DNA of 64,000 nucleotides. It comes from a bacterium (lineage in GTDB: Bacteria; Patescibacteriota; Saccharimonadia; Saccharimonadales; AWTP1-31). Every line of letters starts with the position of its first letter. Position 1 is the first letter of the stretch. Location of the stretch: contig JAUHZB010000002.1 in the NCBI GenBank assembly GCA_030426125.1, positions 67,633 to 131,632 on the forward strand, in the 5' to 3' direction. Made by a program: the position numbers and the translations under genes. Of the stretch, positions 4,716 through 60,636 are shown piece after piece. The notes beneath the pieces are model-generated. The model made no database searches and was not told where the DNA came from. It saw only the letters and a list, made by a program, of their open reading frames with translations.

Positions 4716-4743
4716 ATATTACTCTTTGTTCTGGCTCTGTCAA
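4716..4743 (-). promoter_or_regulatory. promoter driving the Ile leader peptide and ridA-ilvA
   Basis: Minus strand TTGACA (4738-4743), 16 nt, TAATAT (4716-4721), then 8 nt to the leader ATG. Confidence 0.6.
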
Positions 4744-5012
4744 GACAGTCGCCGTTGCTCAATGGTAAGTGGCTGAATATCTTGGTTGTAGTCGTCAGTT
4801 TTAAAAGGATGACCATCACGCCCACTGGCTAGGTGTTCACCAATTATTCTTAGTTCTGGTATTGTGCTGGCCAGATAATTTGAAATTTCCGGACAAACTA
4901 TTCGACCTGGATTAGATTCAGTTTGTATTGGTCTTTCCGGTACTTCGTCTAATCCAAAAGGATCGACTTCGCTAGTTCTCCAACCTAACCAACCATCAGG
5001 ATTTGCTTTCAT
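4740..5012 (-). CDS. hypothetical small protein (90 aa)
   Basis: ORF track gives 4740..5039. ATG 5010-5012 (MKANPDGWLGW...) is preferred because AAGGAG lies 9 nt upstream. No family recognised. TGA stop. Confidence 0.5.
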   Translation of the reverse strand: MKANPDGWLGWRTSEVDPFGLDEVPERPIQTESNPGRIVCPEISNYLASTIPELRIIGEHLASGRDGHPFKTDDYNQDIQPLTIEQRRLS

Positions 5013-5061
5013 CTTTCTTTGCTCCTTTATTCTTATCAATTATTATCTTATCTGAATTATT

Positions 5062-5355
5062 CTAGATGCCTTGGCTTAATGGATCTATAGTTCTAGTACT
5101 TTGGATATCACTACTCTGTGTTTGCTGTAATGCTTCATCGATTGGCGTAGCAGTCATTGAGTAGCCAACTTCACTATCATGAATTAACTCTAATACAACA
5201 GTTGGTCCAACAATTATCCCTTTATTAGCTAATGTTTGATATACCTCAGTAATAACCTCACCGCTATAATCTTGTCCATTAAAATAGACATCTTCAGCTA
5301 TCTCTTCGAAGATTATTGGGTATTTTCGTTCTAATTGTTCAATGTCTTGGCTCAT
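5062..5355 (-). CDS. hypothetical small acidic protein (97 aa)
   Basis: ORF track ORF. AAAGGAA Shine-Dalgarno site about 7 nt upstream of the ATG. First gene after the Leu/Ile/Val attenuator. No family recognised. Confidence 0.55.
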   Translation of the reverse strand: MSQDIEQLERKYPIIFEEIAEDVYFNGQDYSGEVITEVYQTLANKGIIVGPTVVLELIHDSEVGYSMTATPIDEALQQTQSSDIQSTRTIDPLSQGI

Positions 5356-5373
5356 TAAATATTCCTTTAAGTT

Positions 5374-5398
5374 AAAATTCAGGCTATTGAAGCCTGAA
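5374..5398 (-). terminator. attenuator terminator upstream of the 97-aa gene
   Basis: Minus strand TTCAGGCT-tcaat-AGCCTGAA followed by TTTT. Its left arm plus loop (TCAGGCTTCAAT) is perfectly complementary to 5429-5440. Confidence 0.65.
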
Positions 5399-5428
5399 CT
5401 ATGTGGGCTGTGTTGGCGTTAGTAACGC

Positions 5429-5542
5429 TCAGGCTTCAATATATTTTGGACACAGCCCTTTAAGATTAAGAATATCTAAAACCAGCAGCAGATTATTGCT
5501 TCCGTACGCGACGATCCGATTAGCTGTTGCTGTGTTATGCAT
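5429..5542 (-). CDS. putative attenuator leader peptide, Leu/Ile/Val-rich (37 aa)
   Basis: ATG 5540-5542 to TGA 5429-5431: MHNTATANRIVAYGSNNLLLVLDILNLKGLCPKYIEA. 7 Leu, 3 Ile, 2 Val. No Shine-Dalgarno site; the ATG is 7 nt after an extended -10. The last four codons (ATT GAA GCC TGA) form the antiterminator segment. Confidence 0.55.
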   Translation of the reverse strand: MHNTATANRIVAYGSNNLLLVLDILNLKGLCPKYIEA

Positions 5543-5549
5543 CAGTACT

Positions 5550-5578
5550 GTTATAGCACGACGTTTAATCGACCGCAA
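5550..5578 (-). promoter_or_regulatory. promoter of the Leu/Ile/Val leader transcription unit
   Basis: Minus strand TTGCGG (5573-5578), 17 nt, TGcTATAAC (5550-5558), then 7 nt to the leader ATG. Confidence 0.55.
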
Positions 5579-5601: not shown

Positions 5602-7929
5602 CTAATTTATTTGCTGAAGTTTGAACTGGGTATATTTTTCAGCTGCAAGTCTGGTTAGTTCGGCGTCTTCGGAGGTGTTAACAAAACGCATCGCTTCAGC
5701 CAGCATTGGGTGTTGCTCGGCCAGCTTTTGATGCATCTGCATTACGAGTTTACGGTATCCGGGGTGGCCTTGAGGGCTAGTTCTTAGTTCATGCAGATGG
5801 AATGCTTCACGGGCATTGTAGGTTATCTTCCAGCGCATTTTATGCCCAAGTAAAGTAGCGTACTGTGCTTCGATCTCGTATCCAGCACTTATTAACTGGC
5901 TATGCAGGTTGAGGCTTAGGTCGAAGCAATCTTGGAATAGTTCTTCTAGTCCAGCTTCCTCTACTAGTTCTGGAACTTCATAACCATAGCGAGGGGTCAA
6001 TGCTTGCCACTCTAGATCATCAACCATTCTGTGTCGTTGTAGGTCTCTAAATATTCCGTAGTCGCACATTAGATCCCAGCTATAGTGAGCTTTTTCTAAA
6101 GCTCGACCCGGTTTGTGACGACGATTTAATCTTTCACCCATGTATTTATTAAATACTTCAGTTTTTTGCTTATAGCTCCATTTACTTACTTCCTGCTCTA
6201 TTTCAGCTAATGAAAGATGGCTGTGTTCATAGAGCATGTCCGGTAGTAGGTCTAGCTCGTTCTTTGGCCAGCAATCACTTAAGACCACTGCTTCATCCTG
6301 TTGACCATAATTTGGAGGTAGGTATTTATCGGCAACCTCTTGCATAGCCGAGTGGGTGTTGGCTCGGTAAGCAATTATGGCTCCGCCACGATCTGGTCGG
6401 TCGGCTCGCTCTAGGAAGGTTGGAATAATCTTCCGGGCTTCTTGCAGTAGTCGGTCTCCAGTCTGGACTGCTTCTGGTAGCTTATCGCTTTGCAGGTGCA
6501 TAATTAAACTTTCTAGAGCTTGACCTGAGGCGTAGATACCAACTGTAGCTTTAGTGGCTACCGGCAACACTGGCCTGATAGCATCACAGGCTTGGGCTCT
6601 AGTGGCACCTTTCCAAGCGATATCTTGCTCTTCTTTTGGGGTGCTAGAGTTACTTCGTACATAGTCGGTTAATTTTCTAACCATTTCAGAGTATTTGTCG
6701 AAAATGGTGTCCATTGTTTTAACGTAGCTTTGCTTAATGTCTTCGCTGAAGTGATCCGGCACTAGGTATTTATATTTGCCATCTTTATCTTTCTGATCAA
6801 AGTAGATATAGCGAGTCGATTGTTCTAGGTAAGCTGCTAATCTTCCCCACTCTAGTTTCTTGGTTAGTAGGTTAGATGCATTTTCAACTACCAGGTGGAT
6901 ACCAACTAATTGTTGAACGGAATCATCGCCGTAAGCAGTAATTACTCTTTGCAGTAGCTTTTCATCCTTAGAGGTTTTTCCGGCGAATTCATCAAGCAGG
7001 GTTATACGCATATCGTCACCACGACGACTTAGTCTAGCCATGGCGGCGGCTATCATGGTGGTGCTTAGATTGTCAGTGAAAGCATAGACATTGTCTTGAT
7101 TATTGGTCACAGATTTGTTTAAGAATTGCTCACCGGCAGTGGTAATAGTGTATTCACCAGTGCTGGCTTTTAGTAGTAACGGTCCTTGGTTATCTTCTGC
7201 TATTTTCGACTTTTCTTTAGTTGGTAGTATTGGCAAAACAGTCTCCCATAGTAAGTTATTAATTGTTTCAATATCTAATAATTCTCCGCCTCGTACGCAA
7301 TCGATTTGCTGGAAGTCTTCGGGGAACATGCTACATAGATCATCATATACCTGTACAGACTTAGTTAGGTGGTTAAGATCAGCTTCGTGGATGTCACGTT
7401 TTTTATCGGTGTAATCACGTTTTTCTTTTTGATCAACCAGCTTTTGGGCTGTTTCAGCCGGTACTCGAAGCACAATATTGCGATCTGGCCTAGGGATCTT
7501 TAGCATTTCAAACTCAAGGTTATCTAGCCAAATAAAGTAGCCTTTTCTTTCCTGCTGGTTATTGAACTTAGTTCCTTGATGAGCCATGTTACTGCCAGTA
7601 AAGCGATTGGCCAAAACAATATGGCCTTTATCCAGTGCGGCTCGTATTTCGGGCGCTGCTTGGTAGCGATCTAAGGCATAGAACAAAGAGCCGGTGTAGG
7701 GTCCGACCTCTTCAGCGGTGCCGTATTTAGCATTTAAATACTCCCGGACAAAGAAACTAGATTCGTTTTGGTACTGTGGGAAGTCAAAAACAGACACTGG
7801 AAAGCCATTATCCTCCAAGCGTTTTTTTAGCAGTTTAAACTGAGTGCCCTTTCCGGAACCATCAGTTCCTTCAATAACTATGAACACTCCGTTGTCTTTG
7901 TTGTCGTTGGTTTGACTATTTTGCTTCAT
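5602..7929 (-). CDS. fusion protein: dTMP kinase (N-terminal) + tandem-repeat flavin-dependent thymidylate synthase ThyX-like (C-terminal)
   Basis: 775 aa. Residues about 1-230 look like thymidylate kinase (P-loop FIVIEGTDGSGKGTQ). The rest holds two ThyX-like halves (..ARLSRRG...EQSTRY.. and ..FRDLQRHRMV...LTPRYGY..), matching ThyX RHR and S-x-RY type motifs. Confidence 0.75.
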   Translation of the reverse strand: MKQNSQTNDNKDNGVFIVIEGTDGSGKGTQFKLLKKRLEDNGFPVSVFDFPQYQNESSFFVREYLNAKYGTAEEVGPYTGSLFYALDRYQAAPEIRAALDKGHIVLANRFTGSNMAHQGTKFNNQQERKGYFIWLDNLEFEMLKIPRPDRNIVLRVPAETAQKLVDQKEKRDYTDKKRDIHEADLNHLTKSVQVYDDLCSMFPEDFQQIDCVRGGELLDIETINNLLWETVLPILPTKEKSKIAEDNQGPLLLKASTGEYTITTAGEQFLNKSVTNNQDNVYAFTDNLSTTMIAAAMARLSRRGDDMRITLLDEFAGKTSKDEKLLQRVITAYGDDSVQQLVGIHLVVENASNLLTKKLEWGRLAAYLEQSTRYIYFDQKDKDGKYKYLVPDHFSEDIKQSYVKTMDTIFDKYSEMVRKLTDYVRSNSSTPKEEQDIAWKGATRAQACDAIRPVLPVATKATVGIYASGQALESLIMHLQSDKLPEAVQTGDRLLQEARKIIPTFLERADRPDRGGAIIAYRANTHSAMQEVADKYLPPNYGQQDEAVVLSDCWPKNELDLLPDMLYEHSHLSLAEIEQEVSKWSYKQKTEVFNKYMGERLNRRHKPGRALEKAHYSWDLMCDYGIFRDLQRHRMVDDLEWQALTPRYGYEVPELVEEAGLEELFQDCFDLSLNLHSQLISAGYEIEAQYATLLGHKMRWKITYNAREAFHLHELRTSPQGHPGYRKLVMQMHQKLAEQHPMLAEAMRFVNTSEDAELTRLAAEKYTQFKLQQIN

Positions 7930-12205: not shown

Positions 12206-12868
12206 TTAGCGGATATAGATGTCTCGCCTGGATTCATCAACCCGTCCGTTTTTTAGCTGGTTTGGTATTAAGTTAACTAACCCTGGCTTCACAACACTTG
12301 AAGCGGCACTAAGACGATTAATTATTCCTAGGTCCAGTAGTTTTTTAATAACTGCATTGGTTTGCATTTTGCTGGTATGTTTTCCGCTAATTACGATATA
12401 GTCTTCGTCTTTAGGGTTTTGCATTTTATGAATATATTCTTTGAAAGACTTTTCGCTGTAATCTTTGGCGTATTTATCGTCAGATTTTCGTTTATCACGT
12501 CGGTTTAGGCGAGCTTGGGCGCTGGCTGAATCGATTTGTAGCCAGACCAGAATAGATTCTGCTTTAGCGCTACTAGCAACGTTTCTTAGCTCACGGCGTT
12601 GAGCTAGACGAGCTGCATTGGTGTCATAGATCACGCTCATTCCAGCATTTAGGAATTCCTCAGCCATGTAGATCATTAGATGATCGATTAACTCATCTTC
12701 TTGCTTGTCATATTGTGGCTTCTCAAATAGTTCACCGCGTAGTTTATCGGCTTGCAGATGGGCAGCGCCAAGAGTTTTACTAAGCTGTCGAGCGAAGTAA
12801 GACTTACCCGCTCCAGGATAGCCGTACAATAGCATTAACACCGGCTTGGTGGTGGTGATTTTACTCAT
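12206..12868 (-). CDS. P-loop kinase-fold protein (AAA_33/zeta-toxin-like), function unknown
   Basis: ORF track gives 12206..12889. ATG 12866-12868 (MSKITTTKPVLMLLYGYPGAGKSYFARQL, Walker A) chosen as the first ATG. Confidence 0.6.
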   Translation of the reverse strand: MSKITTTKPVLMLLYGYPGAGKSYFARQLSKTLGAAHLQADKLRGELFEKPQYDKQEDELIDHLMIYMAEEFLNAGMSVIYDTNAARLAQRRELRNVASSAKAESILVWLQIDSASAQARLNRRDKRKSDDKYAKDYSEKSFKEYIHKMQNPKDEDYIVISGKHTSKMQTNAVIKKLLDLGIINRLSAASSVVKPGLVNLIPNQLKNGRVDESRRDIYIR

Positions 12869-12948
12869 AGTAGGTATATTGTATAGCAAACCTGTTACAA
12901 TCTAAAGAGGTAAACTTAGTTTTTACAACTGTTAACTCAAGCAATTAC

Positions 12949-15597: not shown

Positions 15598-15795
15598 CTA
15601 TTTCTTTACTTCGTTACGTCCTAGAGATTTCTTGGTTTCACTGTACCAAGTGTGTTTACGTAGAATAGGGTTATACTTTCTAAGCCGTAGCTTGTCTGGA
15701 GTATTCATAGTATTTTTGGACGTGTAGTAATGACGGTGTCCGGTTTCTTCGCACACTAGTCCAAGAATCTTGCGTTTATCGGTTTTCTTTGCCAT
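15598..15795 (-). CDS. rpmG: 50S ribosomal protein L33
   Basis: 65 aa. MAKKTDKRKILGLVCEETGHRHYYTSKN...LRLRKYNPILRKHTWYSE, typical L33. Confidence 0.9.
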   Translation of the reverse strand: MAKKTDKRKILGLVCEETGHRHYYTSKNTMNTPDKLRLRKYNPILRKHTWYSETKKSLGRNEVKK

Positions 15796-15803
15796 AGGAA
15801 TTT

Positions 15804-15812
15804 ATTTTAACA
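15804..15812 (-). promoter_or_regulatory. extended -10 box 8 nt upstream of the rpmG ATG (leaderless candidate)
   Basis: Minus strand TGtTAAAAT, then aaattcct, then ATG. No Shine-Dalgarno site. Confidence 0.45.
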
Positions 15813-16495: not shown

Positions 16496-16945
16496 TCACT
16501 TGGCTACTTCGATAGTAGGAGGATCTAAGTTGAACTCTGGGCCTGTAACTATGTCTGAACTTTTCTTGAAATCACCTAGTATCACGCACAGCGCTGTTTC
16601 AGCCTGGACTTCTTTGTACATGTAGTAAGAGCTGTAGTCATCACTCATAATGAATTTATTATCTTTTTGATAGACAAACAGCTCAGGCGGTTTGAGATTT
16701 AAATAGCCTTTTAGGAAATCTGCTCTAAATTTACTGCTAATTTCTGGTTTAAAATCTGAAAAAGGCTGGATTAAATCCAACTTCACAACTGCTCTTCGGC
16801 ATTTAATCTTTGCTTGGTAGGCGTCTTTTAGGATAGACATCAATTCTTCGTCTTTTGGTGGGTGTTGCCCGCCGAATTGAATATTGATGTCATCAATATT
16901 TATACTAGACCTTTTGTCGTTCGGATCTGTTGTATCGCTGGTCAT
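16496..16945 (-). CDS. hypothetical protein (149 aa)
   Basis: ORF track gives 16496..16951 (GTG). ATG 16943-16945 lies 7 nt after TAGACT (16953-16958), fitting the leaderless pattern. Weak resemblance of ..KFIMSDDYSSYYMYKEV.. to the ParB/Srx fold; not a call. Confidence 0.45.
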   Translation of the reverse strand: MTSDTTDPNDKRSSINIDDINIQFGGQHPPKDEELMSILKDAYQAKIKCRRAVVKLDLIQPFSDFKPEISSKFRADFLKGYLNLKPPELFVYQKDNKFIMSDDYSSYYMYKEVQAETALCVILGDFKKSSDIVTGPEFNLDPPTIEVAK

Positions 16946-16981
16946 TGTCACTAGTCTACACGAAATAAATGATCTTTATGC

Positions 16982-17219: not shown

Positions 17220-17873
17220 TTAAATTACAACGCGTTTCGGACGAGCTACTTTTTTTGGTTTGCCTGAAGGTACGATTAATTTTTTTAGTTTTTGTTCTAT
17301 TTCATCCGCCTCTATTTGCATATCGCTCTGGGTGTAGGCTTTATGTAGGAGCTCATAGGTTTCTTTATTCGGTTCAAGCTCGGCTGCTTTTTTTAGTTCG
17401 GATATCATTAACTTACTGTTACCAAGTTGTTCTTGGACTTTAGCGTAGGCAATGTGTCGAGCGGCTAGCTTATCTTCTAGCTTCAAGGCTTGTTCGAAGG
17501 CAATAGCAGCTTTTTCATAATTTTCGGTCTCGTAGTAGATTAGTCCTAGGTTGTGAAGGCTCGATGGGGTTGACTCGATACTGGAGGCAATCTCAAAGCA
17601 GTCAATAGCATCTTTAAATTCTTTTTGTTTGGCGTAAAGAATTCCTAGTCGGTTGTAGGCGGCAGCGTTTCTAGTATCTATTTTTAGAATAGTTAGCAAG
17701 GCTTTCTCGGCGCGCAAGAATCGGTTTTCACGCATTCCTTGATGGGCAACATCCCACAACTTTCCTACTTTGTCGGTGATTTTTCGTGGCAAGGCACCGA
17801 ATTCATCATCGTCACCTTTAGTGGTTCGGATAACTAGAAAGCCGAAGAATACTAGAATTAATAGTTCTAACAT
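17220..17873 (-). CDS. membrane-anchored TPR-repeat protein
   Basis: 217 aa. N-terminal TM helix MLELLILVFFGFLVI, then about 4 TPR-like repeats (AAAYNRLGILYAKQKEFKDAIDCFEIA...). Confidence 0.7.
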   Translation of the reverse strand: MLELLILVFFGFLVIRTTKGDDDEFGALPRKITDKVGKLWDVAHQGMRENRFLRAEKALLTILKIDTRNAAAYNRLGILYAKQKEFKDAIDCFEIASSIESTPSSLHNLGLIYYETENYEKAAIAFEQALKLEDKLAARHIAYAKVQEQLGNSKLMISELKKAAELEPNKETYELLHKAYTQSDMQIEADEIEQKLKKLIVPSGKPKKVARPKRVVI

Positions 17874-17920
17874 TGCGTCTATTATACGTTAGTTGCTGTA
17901 TTTAGTAAAAACTACCAGCT

Positions 17921-20770: not shown

Positions 20771-21955
20771 TTATTGCAACACTTCATCAACAGATGATAG
20801 CACTGTAGAAAGTTGTCTAGGGTTAAGCTGAGGATCAATATTCCCAGGGTGAGTTGGGGTCTGATCTGGACTGTCCACGCACTCAAGGCGGCTATTGTCT
20901 GCCATAGCCTCAACATGTATTCCATTAAGCATCCGTCCGCTAAAGTTCATTTCCTCTGCTACTGTTTCAACTTCTTCAACGAAACCGGATACACTACGGA
21001 TCTTTTGACCAGCTTGGTTAGTAGTGGTGTTGCCATGCTGATCAACAACTACGATCGATTCAGGACAGTACTTATTTATAGCATCGATGGTGTTTCGCAG
21101 TTCATCGATGTACTGTTTGCCGAAACGAAGCATTAATACTAGTTTACCTAGTTCTTGTTCAGGATTTAATACTTCGGTTAACCGTTCAACCTGTTCGGCT
21201 GTGGTGTTTGGTCCCAGCTTGACGCCAACTGGATTTTCGATACCCGACAGCATTGAAGCAATTGGTCCGTCCGCTGAGTTGGTGCGGTAGCCAATCCACG
21301 GCATGTCAGTTGATAGTAGAAACTTTTTGCCAGCATGTCTAGCTATGAAAGGTTGTTCGTAGGCAATATTCAAGGCTTCGTGAGCGAAGAATATCATTTG
21401 TTGCCCATTAGCTTGACGCAAAGCCTCAGCAGTTGCCCGAGACTGTAAAGCTCCGGCTAATAGTCTGTTGGGATCAGGTTGTCTGTCTGTTGGGTCAGTG
21501 CCATTAACACCCTGTCCCATATGTGAGACGATTTTTCTTCCATCGTCTAGTTCTTCAAATTCGTTAGATCTTGGTTTGGTGAACTGACCACAACTTCGTA
21601 GTACATGAACTCCGTCTGGAATGGCGTCTACCATACGATCTAGAAGTAGTTGGTTCTCAGCTGTCTTCTTATCGTAGTCTGCTGGGTCAACCAGCGGCTC
21701 CGAGCAGTTGCCCGCTATTATTAGTGGCCCCGACTCACCAGAGGCTACCATTGCTAAATTACTGCGCAGTTTAGTGATGTTGGTTGGTCTGGTTACTGGT
21801 TGCGCAGTCCGAAGTTCATCCAGTACTTTGAGCAGCTGCTCGCTGTCAGTGTAGTCTGGCTGGAAAGTTTCGTGGTATGGGCCAGCAGGCAGGCCGTGCA
21901 TTATTGATCTTGTTGTGTGAGCTCTAGGTCCTATCTCTGGTGTTGTGGTATTCAT
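20771..21955 (-). CDS. 3-deoxy-7-phosphoheptulonate (DAHP) synthase, class II-like, short form
   Basis: 394 aa. Class II landmarks in order: AGNCSEP (Cys ligand), GQFTKPRS, FFAHEALNIAYE, WIGYRT, NPVGVKLGP, DQHGNT (His), IHVEA (Glu), ECV, IDPQLN (Asp). Confidence 0.7.
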   Translation of the reverse strand: MNTTTPEIGPRAHTTRSIMHGLPAGPYHETFQPDYTDSEQLLKVLDELRTAQPVTRPTNITKLRSNLAMVASGESGPLIIAGNCSEPLVDPADYDKKTAENQLLLDRMVDAIPDGVHVLRSCGQFTKPRSNEFEELDDGRKIVSHMGQGVNGTDPTDRQPDPNRLLAGALQSRATAEALRQANGQQMIFFAHEALNIAYEQPFIARHAGKKFLLSTDMPWIGYRTNSADGPIASMLSGIENPVGVKLGPNTTAEQVERLTEVLNPEQELGKLVLMLRFGKQYIDELRNTIDAINKYCPESIVVVDQHGNTTTNQAGQKIRSVSGFVEEVETVAEEMNFSGRMLNGIHVEAMADNSRLECVDSPDQTPTHPGNIDPQLNPRQLSTVLSSVDEVLQ

Positions 21956-21994: not shown

Positions 21995-22023
21995 AAAAAA
22001 CCGCCCCTTTTTTTTGGACGGTT
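21995..22023 (-). terminator. attenuator terminator in the DAHP-synthase leader
   Basis: Minus strand AACCGTCC-aaaaaaaag-GGGCGGTT followed by TTTT. One stem position is a G-U pair that exists only in the minus-strand RNA. Confidence 0.65.
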
Positions 22024-22045
22024 ACGTTTTCTGAGCAAAAATTAA

Positions 22046-22114
22046 CTATGCTGAATAAACCGTCCAAGATTGTCCGGTAAACCAATAAGCCTTATTAATT
22101 CGTTTTCTCAACAT
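22046..22114 (-). CDS. putative attenuator leader peptide with Tyr-Trp-Phe triplet (22 aa, MLRKRINKAYWFTGQSWTVYSA)
   Basis: ATG 22112-22114 to TAG 22046-22048. 5 of 22 codons are aromatic; codons 10-12 are TAT TGG TTT. No Shine-Dalgarno site. Codons 17-19 form the antiterminator arm. Confidence 0.65.
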   Translation of the reverse strand: MLRKRINKAYWFTGQSWTVYSA

Positions 22115-22124
22115 AACGTTATAG

Positions 22125-22153
22125 ATAATACATTATGTTGCCAAGTATTGCAA
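22125..22153 (-). promoter_or_regulatory. promoter of the aromatic leader peptide and DAHP synthase
   Basis: Minus strand TTGCAA (22148-22153), 17 nt, TATTAT (22125-22130), then 10 nt to the leader ATG. Confidence 0.6.
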
Positions 22154-22172: not shown

Positions 22173-22201
22173 TTGGCCTGTGTGTTAGCTCAAGGTATAC
22201 T
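22173..22201 (+). promoter_or_regulatory. promoter of the 107-aa plus-strand gene (leaderless candidate)
   Basis: TTGGCC (22173-22178), 17 nt, TATACT (22196-22201), then 7 nt to ATG 22209. No Shine-Dalgarno site. Divergent from the DAHP-synthase promoter. Confidence 0.5.
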
Positions 22202-22208
22202 TATATAG

Positions 22209-24900: not shown

Positions 24901-24914
24901 ATATTTATCGCCTC

Positions 24915-25535: not shown

Positions 25536-25537
25536 GA

Positions 25538-50600: not shown

Positions 50601-51203
50601 ATTCATACCAAGAGCACGTAGTAAGGTGGTAACTGCAATCTTTCGTTTTCGGTCAATCTTTACAAACAAAGCACCGTTGGCAGCTGTTTCGAATTCTAAC
50701 CATGCACCACGGCCAGGAATTACTTTAGCGCCGTAGCGTTTGGTGGCTGTAGAGTTATCTAGAGTAAAGAAAACACCAGCTGAGCGAATTAGCTGGCTAA
50801 CTACTACTCGTTCAGCGCCGTTGATTACAAAAGTTCCACGTTCGGTCATCCATGGATAGTCACCAAGATAGATTTCTTGTTCTTTTACTTCACCAGTTAC
50901 TTTGTTGGTTAATTCAACAGTAGCCTTTAGAGGTGCGTCGTAGCTGACGTTGTTTTCTCGGGCTTCGGCTTCTGTTAGTTTTGGTTTTTCAAAGCTATAG
51001 TCTTTAAAAGATAGTGATAGCTTGGTTCCGGTATAGTCATCGATTGGACTGATCTCAGCTAGTAGTTCGCCAAGGCCCTCCTCTACTAGCCAGTCCCATG
51101 ATTTGTTTTGGTGATCAACCAGATTTGGTAGATCAACAATATTTTTTGATTCATTAAATTGAATTCTTTTACCAGAATTCTTAGTAACCGAACTTTTCGC
51201 CAT
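47652..51203 (-). CDS. rpoB: DNA-directed RNA polymerase subunit beta (acidic ~90-aa C-terminal tail)
   Basis: ORF track gives 47652..51215 (GTG). ATG 51201-51203 (MAKSSVTK...) is preferred because the GTG overlaps the only GGAG. Start uncertain by 4 codons. Confidence 0.95.
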   Translation of the reverse strand: MAKSSVTKNSGKRIQFNESKNIVDLPNLVDHQNKSWDWLVEEGLGELLAEISPIDDYTGTKLSLSFKDYSFEKPKLTEAEARENNVSYDAPLKATVELTNKVTGEVKEQEIYLGDYPWMTERGTFVINGAERVVVSQLIRSAGVFFTLDNSTATKRYGAKVIPGRGAWLEFETAANGALFVKIDRKRKIAVTTLLRALGMNEAQMKEAFAHVDTGKTSYIQTTLDKDPSKGTNDALIEVYRRLRPGDLATVDNARSLIENMFYNFKRFDFSRVGRYKINKRLDLDVPNTTKNRVMRLEDLKAIIAEIIRLSNTGEPADDIDSLANRRVKLVGELVQRQFRIGLLRMERNTKDRMSMCEIETVTPGQLINARPIVAAVREFFASSQLSQFMDQINPLSELAHKRRLSSMGPGGLSRERAGFEVRDAHATHYGRICTVETPEGANIGLVLNLASYARINDYGFVETPYLKVINALPAKKLAGHVASYNLEDESGKVIVEKGKTITEAAAKKLEKIKSQATWPVKAQVSKTIEYLDAAEEEKAVIAGASEAIDENGYFLKERVSARNYLVAGEVDSNDITHIDASRRQIIGSSAALIPFIEKNYVYRSLMGSNQQRQAVPLINPQSPIVGTGMEGEVARNTGQLVTAEASGEVTKANANEVVVKYAKGSKTYSALHFVRSNEGTCINQKVRVNTGDKVKAGDILIEGMSVADGELALGKDLLTAFMPWNGYNFEDAIILSRKLVEDDSLTSIHIVDYMTEVRETKLGPEIVTQDIPNVSEDALRHLDEDGIVRIGAEVHPGDILVGKITPKGEQELSSEERLLRAIFGEKAKEVRDTSQRMSNGKHGKVVGVKVFSRENGHELKAGVIMQIQIFVAQMRKIAVGDKLGGRHGNKGVIARILPVEDMPFNEDGTPVDIVLNPLGVPSRMNIGQLFETHLGMAAKALGIKVATPPFNGVETDKIKSMLSEAGLPEDGKQQLYDGRTGEPFSEKTTVGSMYMIKLNHMIADKIHARSTGPYTMVTQQPLGGKAQNGGQRFGEMEVWALEAYGASNTLQEMLTIKSDDVFGRSKAYESIIKGTEIVGPKVPESFNVLVKELQGLNLKVDLISSGESVDAENILSKSIKDEGEHQSTVDVPEPEASTVDVTTDSVEDEFEILELDDHKPESSEQPAEESAETTKDQETEVK

Positions 51204-51392
51204 AAGCTGTAGCACTCCGTTTTTTATTGATTTATAAATTTATTGCTAATAACCGAAGTTATTGCTGTTACTGTTTATTATCTTTTTCTATCTTTTACTC
51301 TTGGTATTGAGAAGATATTCTAAGAGGGTCAATACAATGCATTATTATTTTTGATAACACAGCAGTGCCCGCTAACGCTACTTCTTATATAG

Positions 51393-51421: not shown

Positions 51422-51479
51422 GTTATTAACAGCTGTGTTGTTTATACTACTACGGCAACAATGTTTCTAGCACTCACTA

Positions 51480-51508
51480 TTGACGAGTGCTAATTTTTTG
51501 CATACTAT
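51480..51508 (+). promoter_or_regulatory. promoter of clpP (leaderless candidate)
   Basis: TTGACG (51480-51485), 17 nt, TACTAT (51503-51508), 6 nt, ATG 51515. No Shine-Dalgarno site. Confidence 0.55.
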
Positions 51509-51514
51509 TAAATT

Positions 51515-52126
51515 ATGAATAAACCAACCAATGCAACTTTAGTACCAACAGTTATTGAAAGTGATGGCCGTGTCGAACGAGCCTACGATATATATAGTCG
51601 TCTATTAAAAGATCGAATCATCTTTTTAGGTGATGCTGTAAATGAGCACACCGCTAACTTAGTCGTCGCTCAGCTATTATTCCTTCATGCTGAGGACCCC
51701 AAGAAAGACATTAATTTCTATATCAATAGTCCAGGAGGGGTTGTTTACGACGCTCTAGCTATCTATGACACTATGCAATATATATCTAACGACATTCAAA
51801 CCGTCGGTATCGGTGTACAAGCCTCGGCCGCCGCTTTTCTACTAAGTTCTGGCACCAAGGGCAAGCGTGTCGCGTTGCCAAATGCAACTATCATGGTTCA
51901 CCAACCAAGTAGCGGTACTAGAGGTAAGGTTACCGATATGGAGATTGACCTAAAAGAATCACTCAGGATTAAGCAAAGACTTAATGAAATAATGGCCAAG
52001 AATACTGGTCAAACCGTTAAGAAAATCCAAGCCGATATGGAGCGTGACTATTGGATGAATGCTGAAGAATCTGTAAAATACGGTATTGTTGACAAGATTG
52101 TTAAAAGCTTGAAAGAAGTTAAATAA
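51515..52126 (+). CDS. clpP: ATP-dependent Clp protease proteolytic subunit
   Basis: 203 aa. [19 protein letters not shown], catalytic Ser region [16 protein letters not shown]. Confidence 0.96.
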
Positions 52127-52143: not shown

Positions 52144-53433
52144 TTAGGATTTTTTCTTAGTAACAATATCAACTAGTTTCTGAACAATCTTCTCAGAACG
52201 TAATCTGGAGGCTATATCTTGCCGACCTTGGTCTGAGTCTAGCTCAGCTTGCATCTTCGGATCTTGGTACTGACCTTTTAGAAGCTGCATTCGCACTTCT
52301 AGTTCCTCTGGGGTGACATTAATTTTTTCCTTATCGCCAATTGCACCAATAATGATACCAATTTTAACTTGCTCTTCGGCTTCTGGGCGTTTACTCTCCG
52401 AGTGCTGTTCAGCTGTTTGACCTTCGGCTTCCAAGTGTTCTTGCCAGGTTTGCCCACGGTAGATTAGGTTTTGCTTTTCGTTTTCTTCAATGCGCTTTAT
52501 TTGATCATCGATTACTGCTTTTGGTATAGCTACTGTCGTTTTCTTTGCAATTTCTTGTAACAGCTCATTTTCGAATTTACGATCAACTTCCGTTTGTTGC
52601 TCTATTTCAAGTTGTTGCTTGATGTTCTTCTTTAGCTCCTCAAGAGTTTTGAACGGTCCGGCTTTAGCGGCAAATTGATCATCTAGTTTTGGTAGGATTA
52701 ATTGGTTTACGGCTTTTACGGTTATATCGAAAGTAACTTTCTTGTTCTGAAGAGCCTTCACTTGGTAGCTTTTTGGGAAAGTAAGTGTGAACTTTTTCTT
52801 TTCTTTGGCCTTCAGTCCAATTAGGTTTTCTTCGAATCCTGGTATAAAAGTGTTACTTCCAAGAACTAGTGGATAATCTTTACCTTCAGCTCCATTAACC
52901 GGTTCACCCTTACTGTCGCTACCTTTAAAGTCGATACTAATTTCATCGCCATCTTTAGCTGGTTTATCTGATGGTTTTTTCTCTGCGCTTCGAGTTCGGA
53001 GGCTTTCAAGCACTCCATTTACGTCTTTTGCAGTCACTTTTACGCTAGGTTTGGTTTTGCTGATTTTGCTATAGTCGGCTAGTTTAACTTCACCAAGGAC
53101 ATCGGCTGTAATTTCGAAATCGAATGTTGTGAAGGGAACGAACTTTTTTAGGTTTACGGAAGGTTGCCCGATAACCCGTAAATTTTCTTTGGTTATGGCT
53201 TCGACGTAGAAGTGGTTAAGGGTAGCGTCAATAAATTCGCTTTGCAGGGTGTTCTGGTCAAGGTTCTTTTCGATAACCTCCATCGGCGCTTTGCCTTCAC
53301 GGAAGCCAGCAACCTTGGTGTTTTTGCCAAGTCTTTTGACGGTAGCTTGTTTAATTTTATTTAAGGTTTCAGCGTCTGCTGAGATACTTAGTGTTACGTT
53401 AGTTGGGTTGTTGTGAGTTAATTTAATTTGCAT
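52144..53433 (-). CDS. tig: trigger factor
   Basis: ORF track gives 52144..53442 (TTG). ATG 53431-53433 (MQIKLTH...) is preferred: it sits 8 nt after TGtTATAAT. Has an FKBP-type middle domain. Confidence 0.9.
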   Translation of the reverse strand: MQIKLTHNNPTNVTLSISADAETLNKIKQATVKRLGKNTKVAGFREGKAPMEVIEKNLDQNTLQSEFIDATLNHFYVEAITKENLRVIGQPSVNLKKFVPFTTFDFEITADVLGEVKLADYSKISKTKPSVKVTAKDVNGVLESLRTRSAEKKPSDKPAKDGDEISIDFKGSDSKGEPVNGAEGKDYPLVLGSNTFIPGFEENLIGLKAKEKKKFTLTFPKSYQVKALQNKKVTFDITVKAVNQLILPKLDDQFAAKAGPFKTLEELKKNIKQQLEIEQQTEVDRKFENELLQEIAKKTTVAIPKAVIDDQIKRIEENEKQNLIYRGQTWQEHLEAEGQTAEQHSESKRPEAEEQVKIGIIIGAIGDKEKINVTPEELEVRMQLLKGQYQDPKMQAELDSDQGRQDIASRLRSEKIVQKLVDIVTKKKS

Positions 53434-53441
53434 AAGTTGCA

Positions 53442-53450
53442 ATTATAACA
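53442..53450 (-). promoter_or_regulatory. extended -10 promoter of tig (leaderless candidate)
   Basis: Minus strand TGtTATAAT, then tgcaactt, then ATG. No Shine-Dalgarno site. Confidence 0.55.
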
Positions 53451-56398: not shown

Positions 56399-58438
56399 TT
56401 AGTTAAGAGTCGTTACTTTTAATAACTGCTCTAGACGTTTAGAAAGATGACTATATTGTAGCAGATTTTCTTGTTTATCTATAAACTGCTGGGCGCAGGC
56501 TCGAGCTTGATTTACAAGCTTAAGATCAGCCAGATCAGCAACTGATAAATCTAAAGCTCCGTGCTGGGCGGAGCCGTATATTGCGCCTGGTCCTCTTATT
56601 TTTAGGTCTAACTCACTCAATTCAAAGCCGTCGTTAGTCGATTCCACAGCTCTCAGTCGACTGCTAGGTGTACTAGAATCGGTTGGCACTAGATAGCAGT
56701 AAGATTGATGTTGACCACGACCAACTCGACCGCGAAGTTGATGAAGTTGTGCTAAGCCAAATCGGTCGGCATTTTCAATGACCATTATGTTGGCATTAGG
56801 GACGTCAACGCCAACTTCTACAACTGTAGTAGAGACCAGCACATCTATTTTTTTCTCCAGGAATTGTTTCATGACTGTTGTCTTGTCTTCAGGGCTTAGT
56901 TTGCCGTGCATTAGACCTACGCGATAATCTTTGAAATCCGTGGATTGCAGTTTTTGTTGCAATGTAGTGGCCGACTGCAGGTCTGGTTGTAAATCGGAAT
57001 CGGACACCAGAGGACAAACTATAAAGGCTTGTCGACCTAGACTGAGCTGATGTTTGATCTTAGTGTAAAGCGAGGCCCGCGAATTTGGCGAGCTAATCTC
57101 TGTGTGTATGGTCTGTTGATGTTTAGGCTTCTGCTGAATTATGGAAACATCCATTTCGCCAAAAAGGGTCAAACTTAGACTTCTTGGTATTGGTGTGGCA
57201 GTCATTGTTAACACGTGCGGCATTTTGTCGGCCTTGGAAAGGAGCTGTTTGCGCTGAGAAACCCCAAAGCGATGTTGTTCATCAATTATTATTAACCCTA
57301 GCTTCTTGATGGCAACTTTTTCTTGGATCAAAGCATGGGTTCCAATTATGAACTGCATATCGCCACTACTAATGTGACGGTGAGAGTGCTTTTTTGAGGA
57401 CGCCTTCATCTTACCGGTCAGTAGACCTACTTTACTATGAAGTCCTAGCGGCTTCAGCAAATTATAGATAGTGTCGGCATGCTGTTTGGCTAGTATCTCC
57501 GTTGGGGCCATCAATGCTACTTGGTAGCCTTGATTTAAGACCATAAGCGCAGCCATGGTCGCTACCACGGTCTTCCCAGAACCAACATCACCCTCAAGTA
57601 ACCTGTTCATAGGTTTGCTTGCCGTTAGATCTTGATAAATAGTCCAGATCACCTTGCGTTGATCATTGGTTAATTCAAATGGCAAATGACCGACGAAGTC
57701 TTTAGCTAGCTGTTCCTTGAATTGTATTTTTTGGGCAGATAGTTGGCTGTTGTCTTGTTTTAAATTTAAGGCAGCTAGCGAGAGCTCAAATACTTCCTCG
57801 AAACCGAGACGCTGTTTAGCTTTTTCTATTTCATCGCTTCTCTTTGGATAATGGATGAGGTATAAAGCCTTAGCTCTACTAACTAGTTTTTCCTGCTTAA
57901 CAATCCAGTTAGGTAGAGTCTCTTCAGTTTTTTGGATTGTCGGCAATACCTGCCGAATAATTTTGCGGATCTGATTAGACTTTAGTCCTTTCGTTTGCCG
58001 ATACACTGGAAGTATGCGGGCAGCATTGGTTGGTAGGTCACTTTCTAGCTCGCAGGCCGGGTTGATCATTGAAAACTTCTGATGACGCAGTTCAAACTGA
58101 CCAGATATTAAATAGGTTTTGTTAGTCGCTAGTGACTTAGCTCGATACGGTTGATTAAACCAGATTATTCGGGCACTGCCAGTAGTATCACTAACTATTG
58201 CTTCTGTGATGTGTAGTCCGCGCCGGGCATATCGACTGCTGACCTGTGAAATTTTTCCGCGTACGCTGTACTGTCCAGTTTGGAGCTGTTTAATCGGGGT
58301 TATCTTGGAATAATCCTGATAAGACCGAGGGTAAAACGAAATTAGGTCATTAACGGTGTATAGTCCCAGTCTATGAAACTTTTTACTTAGCGCCTCACCT
58401 ACCCCTTTAATCTGATCAATCGGATCTTCTAGATTCAT
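56399..58438 (-). CDS. recG: ATP-dependent DNA helicase RecG
   Basis: 679 aa. Wedge domain, GDVGSGKT (Walker A), DEQHRFG, QLRGRVGRG. Confidence 0.95.
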   Translation of the reverse strand: MNLEDPIDQIKGVGEALSKKFHRLGLYTVNDLISFYPRSYQDYSKITPIKQLQTGQYSVRGKISQVSSRYARRGLHITEAIVSDTTGSARIIWFNQPYRAKSLATNKTYLISGQFELRHQKFSMINPACELESDLPTNAARILPVYRQTKGLKSNQIRKIIRQVLPTIQKTEETLPNWIVKQEKLVSRAKALYLIHYPKRSDEIEKAKQRLGFEEVFELSLAALNLKQDNSQLSAQKIQFKEQLAKDFVGHLPFELTNDQRKVIWTIYQDLTASKPMNRLLEGDVGSGKTVVATMAALMVLNQGYQVALMAPTEILAKQHADTIYNLLKPLGLHSKVGLLTGKMKASSKKHSHRHISSGDMQFIIGTHALIQEKVAIKKLGLIIIDEQHRFGVSQRKQLLSKADKMPHVLTMTATPIPRSLSLTLFGEMDVSIIQQKPKHQQTIHTEISSPNSRASLYTKIKHQLSLGRQAFIVCPLVSDSDLQPDLQSATTLQQKLQSTDFKDYRVGLMHGKLSPEDKTTVMKQFLEKKIDVLVSTTVVEVGVDVPNANIMVIENADRFGLAQLHQLRGRVGRGQHQSYCYLVPTDSSTPSSRLRAVESTNDGFELSELDLKIRGPGAIYGSAQHGALDLSVADLADLKLVNQARACAQQFIDKQENLLQYSHLSKRLEQLLKVTTLN

Positions 58439-58444
58439 TCTTTA

Positions 58445-58453
58445 ATACTAGCA
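58445..58453 (-). promoter_or_regulatory. extended -10 promoter of recG (leaderless candidate)
   Basis: Minus strand TGcTAGTAT, then taaaga, then ATG. No Shine-Dalgarno site. Confidence 0.45.
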
Positions 58454-58492
58454 GAAGGCAGATTGTCTTCGACCTAAATTTTATGTTATTAG

Positions 58493-59284
58493 CTATTTAT
58501 CGCTATGTTCAGTTCTAGCATGTTTTACCAAGAAGAAAACGCTAGGTCCAAAGTAGGTCTTGGCTAGTTTGGCTTGAAGGAATGATTCTACTTTTAGCAT
58601 GGCCCCGATTGGCACTATCTTTTTTAGACCTGGTGAGCGTAGATTGGAAACCGATAATACTTTTTCGACTTTTAGGCCAGCATGAGCTAGTTGGCGAATT
58701 ACAGTTTTAGGGTTATGGTTTACGAAAGGAATTTCTTTCTTGTTCTGGTTTTTCTTGGAGCGGATATCTACTGGTTTTTCGGGTAGTTTCTGGGCTTTAA
58801 GAATATGTTTGATGCGGTTTCGAGCGTGTGAGTAGTTGGCTAGCTCTAAGATTAAATAACCGTCTTTGCTGAGAACTCGCTTGATTTCCTTGAATTCTTG
58901 ACTTGGATCTGGCAAGTGATGCATTACTCGAATCATAGTTATTAGATCCAGGCTATTATCCTTAAATTTGAGGTCGTCTGCTTGGGTTAGCTTTTTGTCT
59001 ATTTCAGGGTGATCTTTCAAAAATTCTTTAGCTATATCTAGCTGTTGCTGGCTGGGTTCGGCTAGCGTTACTTTATCGGCATAGTTTTCTAGAAAAATAC
59101 AAAGCCGTCCAAAACCACCGCCGATGTCAGCGGCATTTTTGAAGTGCTTGCCTTTTAATAGGCGTTTGATTGCTATTCTTTCAGCTTGGTTTTCGTAGTC
59201 TCTACCGTCCCAATACTTTAGATAGTTGTGCTTCGGGTCATTGTATTGATCGGACTTTTTTTTGGCAGATTTAGGTGCAGGCAT
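58493..59284 (-). CDS. class I SAM-dependent methyltransferase
   Basis: 263 aa. Motif I ADIGGGFGRL. Methyltransf_11-like length. TGcTATACT promoter upstream. Confidence 0.75.
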   Translation of the reverse strand: MPAPKSAKKKSDQYNDPKHNYLKYWDGRDYENQAERIAIKRLLKGKHFKNAADIGGGFGRLCIFLENYADKVTLAEPSQQQLDIAKEFLKDHPEIDKKLTQADDLKFKDNSLDLITMIRVMHHLPDPSQEFKEIKRVLSKDGYLILELANYSHARNRIKHILKAQKLPEKPVDIRSKKNQNKKEIPFVNHNPKTVIRQLAHAGLKVEKVLSVSNLRSPGLKKIVPIGAMLKVESFLQAKLAKTYFGPSVFFLVKHARTEHSDK

Positions 59285-59360
59285 TTTAAGATTTTCTTTC
59301 CTATTTTTAGTTAATATTTATTGGAATGAAGGTAGTATAGCACGGGCAATTTATATATAG

Positions 59361-60623
59361 CTATTTGCTAACAAGCAGTAATTTATTCTTACCACGCTTA
59401 ACGATAAGATGGTTATTTATGAAGCTGAACTCGTTATTTTCAATGTCCTCGGAGGATATTTTCTGTCCATTAATCTGGATAGCACCTTCGCTAACAAAGC
59501 GGCGGGCTTCAGTCTTACTGCTAGCCAACTGGCCTTCTATTAAAACATCTAAGAAGTTTTTATCACCTAGACTAAGGTGCGGAATTTCGCGGGCTAGTAG
59601 TGCAAAGTCATCTTGGCTTAACTCTTGGTAGTTTTCGCTAAATAGTAGGTCAGTGATCTTGATTATTTGTTCAGTAATCTGCTGGCCATGAACCAGGGTA
59701 GTTACTTCGCTGGCCAATGTTTTTTGTGCTACTCTGGTGGCTTTGTTGGAGTTAAATTCTTCCATGATCTGATCAATTTCGTTTTTATCCAGTTCGGTGT
59801 AGGTTTTCAAGTAGCCTTCAACTCCTTGGTCATCGACATTTAACCAGAACTGGTAAAACTGGAATGGGGAGGTTAGCTCGGCATCTAGCCACACCGCTCC
59901 GTCTTCAGACTTACCGAATTTCTTTCCAGTTTGAGAATTAATAATTAGCGGAATAGTTAGGGCGTGTACTTCTTTGGAGCGAGTCCTTCGAATTAGATCG
60001 ACCCCAGATAAACAGTTACCCCACTGGTCGGAGCCCCCGATTTGTAGTTGGCAGTTGTATTTATCGAACAGGTGTAAGTAGTCCATCCCTTGTAATAAGG
60101 TGTAGCTGAACTCAGCGTAAGTGATTCCACTGCCTCCTTGGTTCATTCGTTTGGCAATGAAATCTCGCTGGACTAGCGGTGTCATACTGTAGTGTTTACC
60201 AATGTCTCTTAAAAAGTCGATAACCTTTAAGTCTTTGGTCCAGTCCAGGTTGTTTACTAGTTGGAATTGATGACCACGGTAAATATTATTAAACTGTTTT
60301 TCGGCTTGCTTAATATTGTTAGCTATTGTTTCTAGAGACTGTAGTTCACGCTCACTGTCCTTGCCTCCTGGATCGCCGATCAGACTGGTTGCTCCCCCAG
60401 CTAGAATAATGGCTTTGTGGCCATGACGTAGGAATACTTTATCGATCATCATGGCTGCTAGATTACCGATGGTTTGTGATGGTGCGCTAGCGTCAAAACC
60501 GTGGTAGAAAGTCCATTGCTGTTTGTCTAATTGGCCAATATCTTTAAAGGTGCTTTGGTTAATAAAACCACGCCACTGTAGCTCTTCTGAAAGGGTCATC
60601 TGCTGTTTATTACTTTTGCTCAT
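59361..60623 (-). CDS. tyrS: tyrosine--tRNA ligase
   Basis: 420 aa. GFDASAPSQTIGNL (degenerate HIGH), KFGKS (KMSKS variant), C-terminal S4-like domain. Confidence 0.92.
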   Translation of the reverse strand: MSKSNKQQMTLSEELQWRGFINQSTFKDIGQLDKQQWTFYHGFDASAPSQTIGNLAAMMIDKVFLRHGHKAIILAGGATSLIGDPGGKDSERELQSLETIANNIKQAEKQFNNIYRGHQFQLVNNLDWTKDLKVIDFLRDIGKHYSMTPLVQRDFIAKRMNQGGSGITYAEFSYTLLQGMDYLHLFDKYNCQLQIGGSDQWGNCLSGVDLIRRTRSKEVHALTIPLIINSQTGKKFGKSEDGAVWLDAELTSPFQFYQFWLNVDDQGVEGYLKTYTELDKNEIDQIMEEFNSNKATRVAQKTLASEVTTLVHGQQITEQIIKITDLLFSENYQELSQDDFALLAREIPHLSLGDKNFLDVLIEGQLASSKTEARRFVSEGAIQINGQKISSEDIENNEFSFINNHLIVKRGKNKLLLVSK

Positions 60624-60630
60624 GAAACGT

Positions 60631-60636
60631 ATTATA
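60631..60636 (-). promoter_or_regulatory. -10 box 7 nt upstream of the tyrS ATG (leaderless candidate)
   Basis: Minus strand TATAAT, then acgtttc, then ATG. No Shine-Dalgarno site and no T-box. Confidence 0.5.

Follow-up and report, generated by a model that had tools for sequence, protein, structure and literature searches.

Leaderless messenger RNAs are established in Actinobacteria and Deinococcus, where recognition of a 5′-terminal AUG is also known. In genomes of GeneMarkS-2 group C, a Pribnow box lies 6–8 nucleotides (nt) from where the first gene begins and the remaining genes have Shine–Dalgarno (SD) sites; the group comprises 90% of Actinobacteria and 97% of Deinococcus–Thermus and is rare elsewhere, and about 25–50% of transcription units are leaderless (PMC6028130). 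Here we analyse the gene starts of a 64,000-nt stretch of DNA, referred to as the window, from a member of Candidatus Saccharibacteria (TM7; class Saccharimonadia, Patescibacteria or Candidate Phyla Radiation, CPR; assembly GCA_030426125.1, contig JAUHZB010000002.1, positions 67,633–131,632), in which many first genes of transcription units appear to be leaderless. Similar to Mycobacterium tuberculosis, Corynebacterium glutamicum, Streptomyces and Deinococcus–Thermus of group C, about 15 of the roughly 40 transcription units of the window have the Pribnow spacing. Different from them, the layout occurs in Saccharibacteria (CPR) at about 42% G+C, with AT-rich promoters, frequent TGn extensions and a TATACT or TAnAAT core; transcription starts have been mapped in the group C model organisms, whereas the layout in Saccharibacteria is known from sequence and comparison. 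Group B of the Bacteroidetes also has an A/T-rich motif shortly upstream of SD-less starts, but there the motif precedes first and internal genes alike, whereas here internal genes have GGAG-type SD sites and the motif comes with a -35 element and TGn.

We assign a probability of about 85% to the reading that, in the lineage of the window, first genes are leaderless, internal and leadered genes are led by SD sites, and the peptides of three attenuators are leaderless too. In the proposed mechanism, about 15 of some 40 transcription units would have a sigma-70-type promoter whose -10 hexamer ends 6–8 nt before the start codon. Transcription by RNA polymerase would begin at the A of the ATG or 1–3 nt before it, so that a transcript beginning at the ATG would have no room for an SD site, and the 5′-terminal AUG would be recognised directly by the ribosome without SD–anti-SD contact, as is known from other bacteria. 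Internal genes and first genes with longer leaders would use AAGGAG-type SD sites 7–10 nt upstream, and translation of the leader peptides would select between antiterminator and terminator ahead of ridA–ilvA, two small genes and a DAHP synthase gene.

The minus strand carries nearly every gene of the window (G+C 42%), and the layout was observed there at genes of several functions. In tig (53431–53450), the element TGtTATAAT, with its hexamer at 53442–53447, ends 8 nt before the ATG at 53433, and no SD site is present. The -10 hexamer TATAAT of tyrS (60621–60636) lies at 60631–60636, 7 nt before the ATG at 60623; recG (58436–58453) has TGcTAGTAT (hexamer 58445–58450) 6 nt before the ATG at 58438, and rpmG (15793–15812) has TGtTAAAAT (hexamer 15804–15809) 8 nt before the ATG at 15795. 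On the plus strand, the clpP promoter (51468–51517) reads TTGACG-17-TACTAT, with the -10 hexamer at 51503–51508, 6 nt before the ATG at 51515. These genes belong to thirteen starts listed by an earlier sequence-only reading, and upon re-reading of the sequence all thirteen ATGs and -10-like hexamers were located where it had placed them, with every gap correct. Its statement that none of the thirteen has an SD site is essentially true, as the incidental AAGG found at two of them (1 nt from the ATG of the Ile leader peptide, and within the promoter of a 107-amino-acid (aa) open reading frame, ORF) is ill-placed for SD function at both; the four SD-led starts that it gave for comparison (ridA, a LysM or 'Rpf-like' gene, dcd and a 153-aa ORF) were all found. 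Public gene calls share the starts of clpP, tig, tyrS, recG, secY and the 104-, 149- and 107-aa ORFs. Two further starts were added here, both on the minus strand: a gene for a TPR protein (17871–17886), with TATAAT at 17881–17886 and the ATG 7 nt downstream at 17873, and a 220-aa ORF (12866–12883) with TGcTATACAAT, of which TACAAT (12878–12883) ends 9 nt before the ATG at 12868. The latter is a possible leaderless or near-leaderless start, a candidate from the window sequence.

That the spacing is commoner than in shuffled upstream regions, and that first genes differ from internal ones, was borne out by a scan of the window, in which ORFs of at least 70 aa were taken with their first ATG and a gene was counted as first when the upstream gap was at least 25 nt. 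A TANNNT hexamer ending 6–8 nt upstream was found at 9 of 40 first genes, compared with 4.26 ± 1.92 in dinucleotide shuffles (P = 0.02), and at just one of the 29 internal genes (Fisher's test against first genes, P = 0.037). SD-type tetramers showed the opposite distribution (24/29 internal and 20/40 first genes, P = 0.006). The -10 hexamer and the SD site nearly exclude each other at first genes (P = 0.02), and eight of the nine genes with the hexamer are without an SD site. Beyond the window, the loose TANNNT profile gave a peak of about two-fold, and a stricter motif and an analysis by gene family were then used. The motif TA[TC]A[AC]T at gap 6–8 was observed 82 times against 9.7 expected in 161 sequences (2.1 Mb), a count that, like the pooled orthologue counts, is inflated, as the loci are orthologous and not independent. 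In both the loose and the strict profiles the peak lies at exactly gap 6–8.

As we read the sequences, it is the comparison with 160 related loci, not the window alone, that decides the matter. These comprise 80 genome loci retrieved through the tig protein (L001–L080) and 80 metagenome loci retrieved through the RpoA protein (L081–L160), which together with the window make up the 161 sequences; almost every labelled record is an assembly of Candidatus Saccharibacteria, Saccharimonadales or the 'Patescibacteria group', and identity to the window proteins in the fetched loci is 44–85% for tig and 67–78% for RpoA. In each orthologue, the position that matches the first residue of the window protein in the alignment served as the anchor for the start. 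Clustering of 2,133 ORFs from the 161 sequences yielded 43 families with aligned N-termini, which removes most of the non-independence. Seven of the 43 families are 40–78% leaderless-type (tig, recG, the TPR gene, clpP, a 263-aa gene at 58493, tyrS and trpS), and at least 27, including essentially all ribosomal-protein and rpo genes, are at most 2% leaderless-type and at least 75% SD-type. The two initiation modes proposed by the sequence-only reading, with leaderless first genes and SD-led internal or long-leader genes, are thereby supported by comparative data.

Conservation across the class was also observed gene by gene. A TGnTAnnnT element lies 7–8 nt before the ATG in 64 of 75 tig orthologues, which share the N-terminus MQ[IV]K; the pattern is tcTGtTAnAnT, preceded at about 17 bp by a -35 of the GCAA or GACA type, and the remaining intergenic sequence is not conserved. 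The same lack of conservation in the rest of each intergenic sequence holds for recG, the TPR gene, trpS, rpmG and the 104-aa gene. Leaderless-type starts were found in 28 of 34 recG orthologues, mostly with TATACT 6–8 nt upstream, and in 17 of 33 trpS orthologues, while tyrS relatives have TATACT or TATAAT 6–8 nt before the ATG. For the TPR gene, visual inspection placed TGnTATAAT-type elements 6–8 nt before the ATG in almost all of its 24 orthologues, and a strict test accepted 18 of the 24. The strict test likewise gave 18 of 24 for clpP, or about 42 of 66 when its promoter was anchored on CIRCE. Control genes gave no leaderless-type start at all (rpoB 0/50, rplO 0/35, rpsM 0/47), and 125 of these 132 are SD-only.

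Upstream of clpP, an inverted repeat, TAGCACTC-N9-GAGTGCTAA, lies at 51468–51493 (plus strand), with the clpP -35 hexamer within the 9-nt spacer; it is CIRCE-like, agreeing with the CIRCE consensus, TTAGCACTC-N9-GAGTGCTAA, at 8/9 and 9/9 bases. The repeat, the -35 and the -10 are conserved upstream of clpP in about 66 of the L001–L080 loci, so that the promoter position is fixed independently of the start codon. Similar to the CIRCE/HrcA operator, the inverted repeat overlaps a promoter and is conserved in these loci; different from it, the repeat is ahead of clpP, not groESL or dnaK, and encloses the -35 hexamer in its spacer. Its presence suggests HrcA control of clpP; hrcA is not among the identified genes of the window, and no search aimed at it was made in the other loci. 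Measured from this promoter, the distance from -10 to start is bimodal, 5–10 nt in about 42 species and at least 20 nt in about 20. In all of the latter, a motif of the AAGG, GGAG or GAGG type immediately precedes the start, and in the former no room is left for an SD site. The few distances of 12–17 nt come from wrong TANNNT picks, and by eye most of these have a TATAAT-type hexamer at 6–8 nt.

Both secY and rpmG alternate likewise between a short distance and an SD-bearing leader. The aTCTGTTAaAaT motif is 7–8 nt before the ATG in 6 of 12 rpmG orthologues, and elsewhere it lies further upstream and an SD site follows. In the window, secY (28439–28455, minus strand) has its promoter inside the ribosomal-protein cluster, after rplO, with the -10 hexamer TAGAAT (28450–28455) 8 nt before the ATG at 28441 and no SD site. 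This promoter, between rplO and secY, is conserved, and 30 of 39 relatives have a leader of 25–35 nt with GAGGG. This either/or pattern would be hard to explain unless the short-distance form were truly leaderless. Two other genes, hisS (54776) and trpS (20685), have leaderless-type starts in many relatives, but in the window they lie behind a tRNA-Leu gene and the DAHP synthase gene, respectively, with weak purine-rich, SD-like sites. They were therefore rejected as examples from the window and are further cases of gene-by-gene switching between start modes.

The element that abuts the start codon has the properties expected of a sigma-70-type promoter, namely a putative -35 at 16–17 bp, the TGn extension and, at clpP, overlap with an operator. 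When sites were aligned on the hexamer, positions that had not been selected for showed A as the fourth base of the hexamer (82%), T (50%) and G (59%) at -15 and -14, T at -17 and, where a 17-bp spacer would place the -35, a weak T..G; this matrix is weighted toward tig, a major contributor of sites. A bias toward ATG was also observed. Leaderless-type starts comprise 207 ATG, 5 GTG and 1 TTG (n = 213) and SD-type starts 198 ATG, 18 GTG and 3 TTG (n = 219), in tallies that are not phylogenetically independent, and the ATG excess agrees with the dependence on AUG that is known for leaderless initiation.

Short leader peptides provide a separate line of evidence. In C. glutamicum, leader peptides precede ilvBNC, leuA, trpE and aroF, and that of aroF contains Phe-Tyr-Phe; its ilvB leader peptide has been shown to be produced without a ribosome-binding site (PMC4046766 and its reference 42). 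Similarly, in the window short ORFs rich in cognate amino acids stand before ilv genes and DAHP synthase. The differences are the phylum and the sequences, the position of the branched-chain attenuator, which precedes two small proteins and not ilvB or leuA, and the predicted status of the attenuators here. An Rfam scan of the window at gathering thresholds returned five tRNAs only, with no leader, T-box or riboswitch family, and is neutral on the attenuators. Together, the features described below make a convincing case that the three predicted leader peptides belong to ribosome-mediated attenuators. As the peptides need to be translated, have no SD site and have a sole promoter abutting the ATG, they support the leaderless reading.

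The putative Ile attenuator lies upstream of ridA–ilvA (4604–4743, minus strand). Its promoter, TTGACA-16-TAATAT with a perfect -35 element (-10 at 4716–4721), ends 8 nt before the ATG at 4707 of the leader ORF MNKIVAIIDIIDPLTR (4657–4707), whose peptide contains AIIDII and whose Ile codons pair with the segment after the stop codon. The antiterminator segment GGTAGATGTCG (4651–4661) has CGACCTCTCTACC as its pairing partner, and this alternative uses the 5′ half of the terminator (GACCTCT..AGAGGTC-T6, 4604–4632). Folding predicted the terminator and the 1:2 hairpin; the antiterminator pairing of GGTAGATGTCG with CGACCTCTCTACC was found by reading the sequence, not by the fold. In a related locus (L166, IlvA 66% identical), TTGACA-16-TAGTAT-6-ATG precedes the peptide MVKQSAIIEIIAPPKR, followed by the same terminator and antiterminator segments.

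The branched-chain (Leu/Ile/Val) attenuator (5374–5558, minus strand) has TGcTATAAC (5550–5555) 7 nt before the ATG at 5542 of a 37-aa leader containing LLLVLDILNL (5429–5542). Four RNA segments may be recognised: GGGCTGTGT (5450–5458), ACACAGCCC (5405–5413), the antiterminator TTGAAGCCTGA (5429–5439) and the terminator (5374–5398). In a sub-fragment fold, the antiterminator has -22.7 kcal/mol and spans the stop codon of the leader. The same RNA segments accompany TGaTATAAC-7-ATG and the peptide MQTQVLSIVRILSLDLPGLCFNHIEA in L166. The -10 of this leader is TATAAC in both the window (5550–5555) and L166 (about 1142–1147), with a final C in place of the usual T behind TGn. Its target is a pair of small proteins of 97 and 90 aa in the window (4740–5355, minus strand) and of 91 and 65 aa in L166 (1305–1809), in place of an identifiable ilv or leu gene; conservation is seen in the first of the two (EDVY..GYS.E.IT, ATPIDE and, at the C-terminus, QGI), and neither protein has a Pfam match.

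The aromatic attenuator (21995–22153, minus strand) precedes the class II DAHP synthase gene (start 21955). TTGCAA-17-TATTAT (-10 at 22125–22130) ends 10 nt before the ATG at 22114 of the leader MLRKRINKAYWFTGQSWTVYSA (22046–22114), whose peptide contains YWF. The putative antiterminator segment TTGGACGGTT (22058–22067) lies inside this ORF and is complementary to the terminator's 5′ half (AACCGTCC-A8-GGGGCGGTT-T6, 21995–22023). The antiterminator has -17.7 kcal/mol in a fold of a 3′ sub-fragment, and full-length folds show the terminators, so that alternative RNA folds were observed. Relatives (L163, L164 and L165) have YWF, YSFWF or WFYY..FYF peptides, L164 and L165 have TGcTAnnnT 7–8 nt before the ATG, and the pairing segments covary (GGACGGTT/AACCGTCC in the window versus GGCGGTT/AACCGCC in L165). 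A short ORF rich in the regulating codons thus stands upstream of the pathway genes for both Ile (ridA–ilvA) and aromatic amino acids (DAHP synthase). Genes for IlvA, RidA and class II DAHP synthase are present in the window (2671–4194 and 20771–21955) and in relatives (L164, L167 and L168), which also have IlvB/IlvN and prephenate dehydratase. Such amino-acid biosynthetic capacity is greater than is usually credited to Saccharibacteria. The conserved Ile, branched-chain and aromatic attenuators suggest active regulation of amino-acid biosynthesis genes in these environmental Saccharibacteria, which bears on the auxotrophy of the group.

SD-led starts dominate elsewhere in the window. In the ribosomal-protein and rpoA clusters (22596–37232, minus strand), internal genes mostly have AAGGAG-type SD sites 7–10 nt upstream and TAATG overlaps, with secY and infA as exceptions, and the cluster families are 75–100% SD-type and 0% leaderless-type. 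About 20 consecutive ribosomal-protein genes in this region have the one-base stop overlap (TAATG) and AAGGAG 7–10 nt upstream, an arrangement that would fit translational coupling. The genes with canonical SD sites, whether internal or first genes behind longer leaders, include rpoB, tuf, rpsJ, rplK and ridA. As a leadered first-gene control, rpoB (51201–51218, minus strand) starts at the ATG at 51203, which has GGAG 11 nt upstream, and not at the GTG at 51215 that precedes it; none of its 50 orthologues is leaderless-type, and 45 are SD-only. Behind the Ile attenuator, ridA (4551–4565, minus strand) has the SD site GAAAGGAG (4558–4565) 4 nt before the ATG at 4553, and dcd has GGAGGGAG 6 nt before a TTG start. 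Both starts lie inside the longest ORFs, where the SD sites of the sequence-only reading imply, and the longest ORFs of rpoB, ridA and dcd start at the wrong codon (GTG 51215, TTG 4646 and ATG 8714, respectively). The LysM or 'Rpf-like' gene has GGAGGAG and the 153-aa ORF has GGAG. The infA promoter (26845–26902, minus strand), cTTTACA-17-TGnTAtAAT, is strongly conserved in about 45 of the L081–L160 loci, and its -10 ends 17 nt before the ATG, which is directly preceded by a near-invariant SD-less sequence of some 10 nt, GTTATATTT. The gene seems to have a start of a third type, with a short, conserved, SD-less and possibly regulatory leader.

Several points weigh against the leaderless reading. 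The excess in the window alone is modest (P about 0.02), and a generic -35/-10 scan of 50–64 kb found 23 sites against 27.5 in shuffles, which is chance level; together with a terminator scan, the generic sigma-70 scan recovered, among the listed promoters, that of clpP alone and has no evidential value. Inflation of the pooled counts acts in the same direction. The leaderless form of secY is confined to the genome of the window. Read-through from upstream genes would also give internal, SD-less copies of leaderless starts. At gaps of 8–10 nt the transcript may keep a 5′ untranslated region (UTR) of 1–3 nt, and the aromatic leader, with its 10-nt gap, probably keeps about 3 nt. Comparison of the 43-, 149- and 107-aa ORFs with all fetched loci by tblastn returned self-matches only. 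Finally, where exactly transcription starts and how ribosomes are recruited are inferred, every start from promoter geometry.

The least credible alternative is chance, by which TANNNT would be so common in AT-rich intergenic DNA that thirteen hand-picked cases are meaningless. The cases were indeed selected by eye, the loose motif is expected at about 4 of 40 first genes, and generic promoter matches occur at shuffle level. Chance is nevertheless already largely refuted: the peak falls exactly at gap 6–8, the element and its spacing are kept in orthologues of 44–85% protein identity, the motif excludes SD sites and vice versa, gene families fall into two classes, and unselected positions fit the sigma-70 consensus. 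It is also very improbable that the start codons are wrong and that true starts lie elsewhere behind ordinary ribosome-binding sites, the juxtaposition then arising from misplaced ATGs. Several longest ORFs do start wrongly, as in rpoB, ridA and dcd, and orphan ORFs cannot be checked by homologues; however, for tig, recG, trpS, the TPR gene, clpP, rpmG and the 104-aa gene, similarity begins at residue 1 in dozens of species, with conserved N-termini including MQ[IV]K, MSKPVIL and MPK..K. Independent public gene calls agree with these starts, and no SD-led alternative occurs downstream within the conserved N-termini.

A mode of SD-independent initiation on leadered transcripts is unlikely, although it deserves somewhat more weight. 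Here the promoters would lie upstream, and the A/T-rich element would be an unstructured or S1-type enhancer as in Bacteroidetes group B. The conserved SD-less leader of infA, about 10 nt long behind a promoter 17 nt upstream, indicates that SD-independent leadered initiation probably exists in this lineage, and read-through into tig is possible, as hisS ends just 41 nt upstream of it in the window. Yet the elements have promoter-specific features that are irrelevant to translation, such as TG at -15/-14, a -35 at 16–17 bp and CIRCE over the -35; group B motifs also stand before internal genes (PMC6028130), whereas internal genes here have SD sites and just 1 of 29 has TANNNT at gap 6–8; and an SD site is always present when the same promoter is located 20 nt or further upstream. 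Leaderless first genes remain the preferred explanation. A wider form of this explanation, in which leaderless initiation is a class-wide but labile default for first genes of Saccharimonadia and possibly of the wider CPR, with genes flipping between modes behind the same promoter and attenuators being leaderless too, is speculative, and we consider it doubtful.

The sequence-only reading had also suggested that the signature supports several small ORFs, and this holds for a 104-aa membrane protein and the three leader peptides, while the 43-, 149- and 107-aa ORFs stay candidates without homologues. The 104-aa gene (37481–37795, minus strand; start region 37793–37809) lies between rpsJ and rplC and has TATACT (37804–37809) 8 nt before the ATG at 37795. 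Thirty Saccharibacteria homologues were found besides itself, and the position is the same in four inspected genomes (L169–L172), usually after a NUDIX gene that is absent from the window. In three of these four, T[AG]TAtAAT or TACAAT lies 7 nt before the ATG, and the fourth (L170) is ambiguous. The membrane protein at this site is 83–108 aa long, conserved and Saccharibacteria-specific, and the NUDIX hydrolase gene of the relatives is leaderless-type in three of four.

The remaining three ORFs are plausible candidates only. The 43-aa ORF (39030–39047, minus strand), just past the tuf terminator, has TGaTACACT (hexamer 39039–39044) 6 nt before the ATG at 39032; it has no Pfam match and no homologue in the fetched loci, and its exact sequence is absent from the public protein collection. 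The 149-aa ORF (16943–16958, minus strand) has TAGACT (16953–16958) 7 nt before the ATG at 16945, the start also given by the public call. The 107-aa ORF (22173–22211, plus strand), divergent from the aromatic attenuator, has TTGGCC-17-TATACT (hexamer 22196–22201) 7 nt before the ATG at 22209. A Pfam search of the orphan ORFs (104, 43, 149, 107, 97, 90, 153, 130 and 98 aa) matched zero families.

The gene content of the window includes rplJL, ridA–ilvA, a tmk–thyX fusion, dcd, rplKA, secE–nusG, rpmG with tRNAs, DAHP synthase–trpS, the ribosomal-protein and rpoA clusters from rpsI to rpsJ, tuf–fusA–rpsGL, rpoBC, clpP, tig, hisS, recG and tyrS. No L30 gene stands between rpsE and rplO and no adk or map gene after secY, a pattern typical of CPR. 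A 775-aa ORF (5602–7929, minus strand) is an apparent thymidylate kinase–ThyX fusion, whose L166 orthologue has PF02223 and PF02511. Between rpsG and fusA, a 98-aa ORF without a Pfam match (42518–42814, minus strand) is inserted, with a weak AAGG upstream and its start 2 nt past the rpsG stop.

In our literature search, which did not extend to the supplementary group assignments of GeneMarkS-2, no paper was found that links leaderless mRNAs to Saccharibacteria, TM7, CPR or Patescibacteria, the hits being entries in reference lists or a comment on YchF, and an RNA-seq preprint on TM7x does not mention promoters or transcription starts. The reading is well supported; the mechanism itself is known and ordinary, the lineage is one for which no earlier report was found, and the value of the finding is practical and comparative, not conceptual.

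Cultivated Saccharibacteria have Actinobacteria as their hosts. The initiation grammar shared with Actinobacteria could be explained by common Terrabacteria ancestry, and, if true, could ease the uptake of host genes by the epibionts, for example of a class II DAHP synthase gene with an aroF-like attenuator. If the start codon is also the transcription start in about 40% of transcription units, start calling would be improved in CPR and Saccharibacteria genomes, which are mostly metagenome-assembled and automatically annotated, and real small genes such as that of the 104-aa membrane protein and those of the three leader peptides would be rescued. Genetic manipulation of Saccharibacteria has become possible only recently, and a promoter grammar of TTTACA or TTGACA, 17 bp, TGnTAtAAT or TATACT, 6–8 nt and ATG should be directly usable for this purpose. 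The reduced ribosomes of CPR (L30 being absent in the window), combined with reliance on leaderless initiation, would make these bacteria a natural system in which to study the minimal needs of 5′-AUG recognition.

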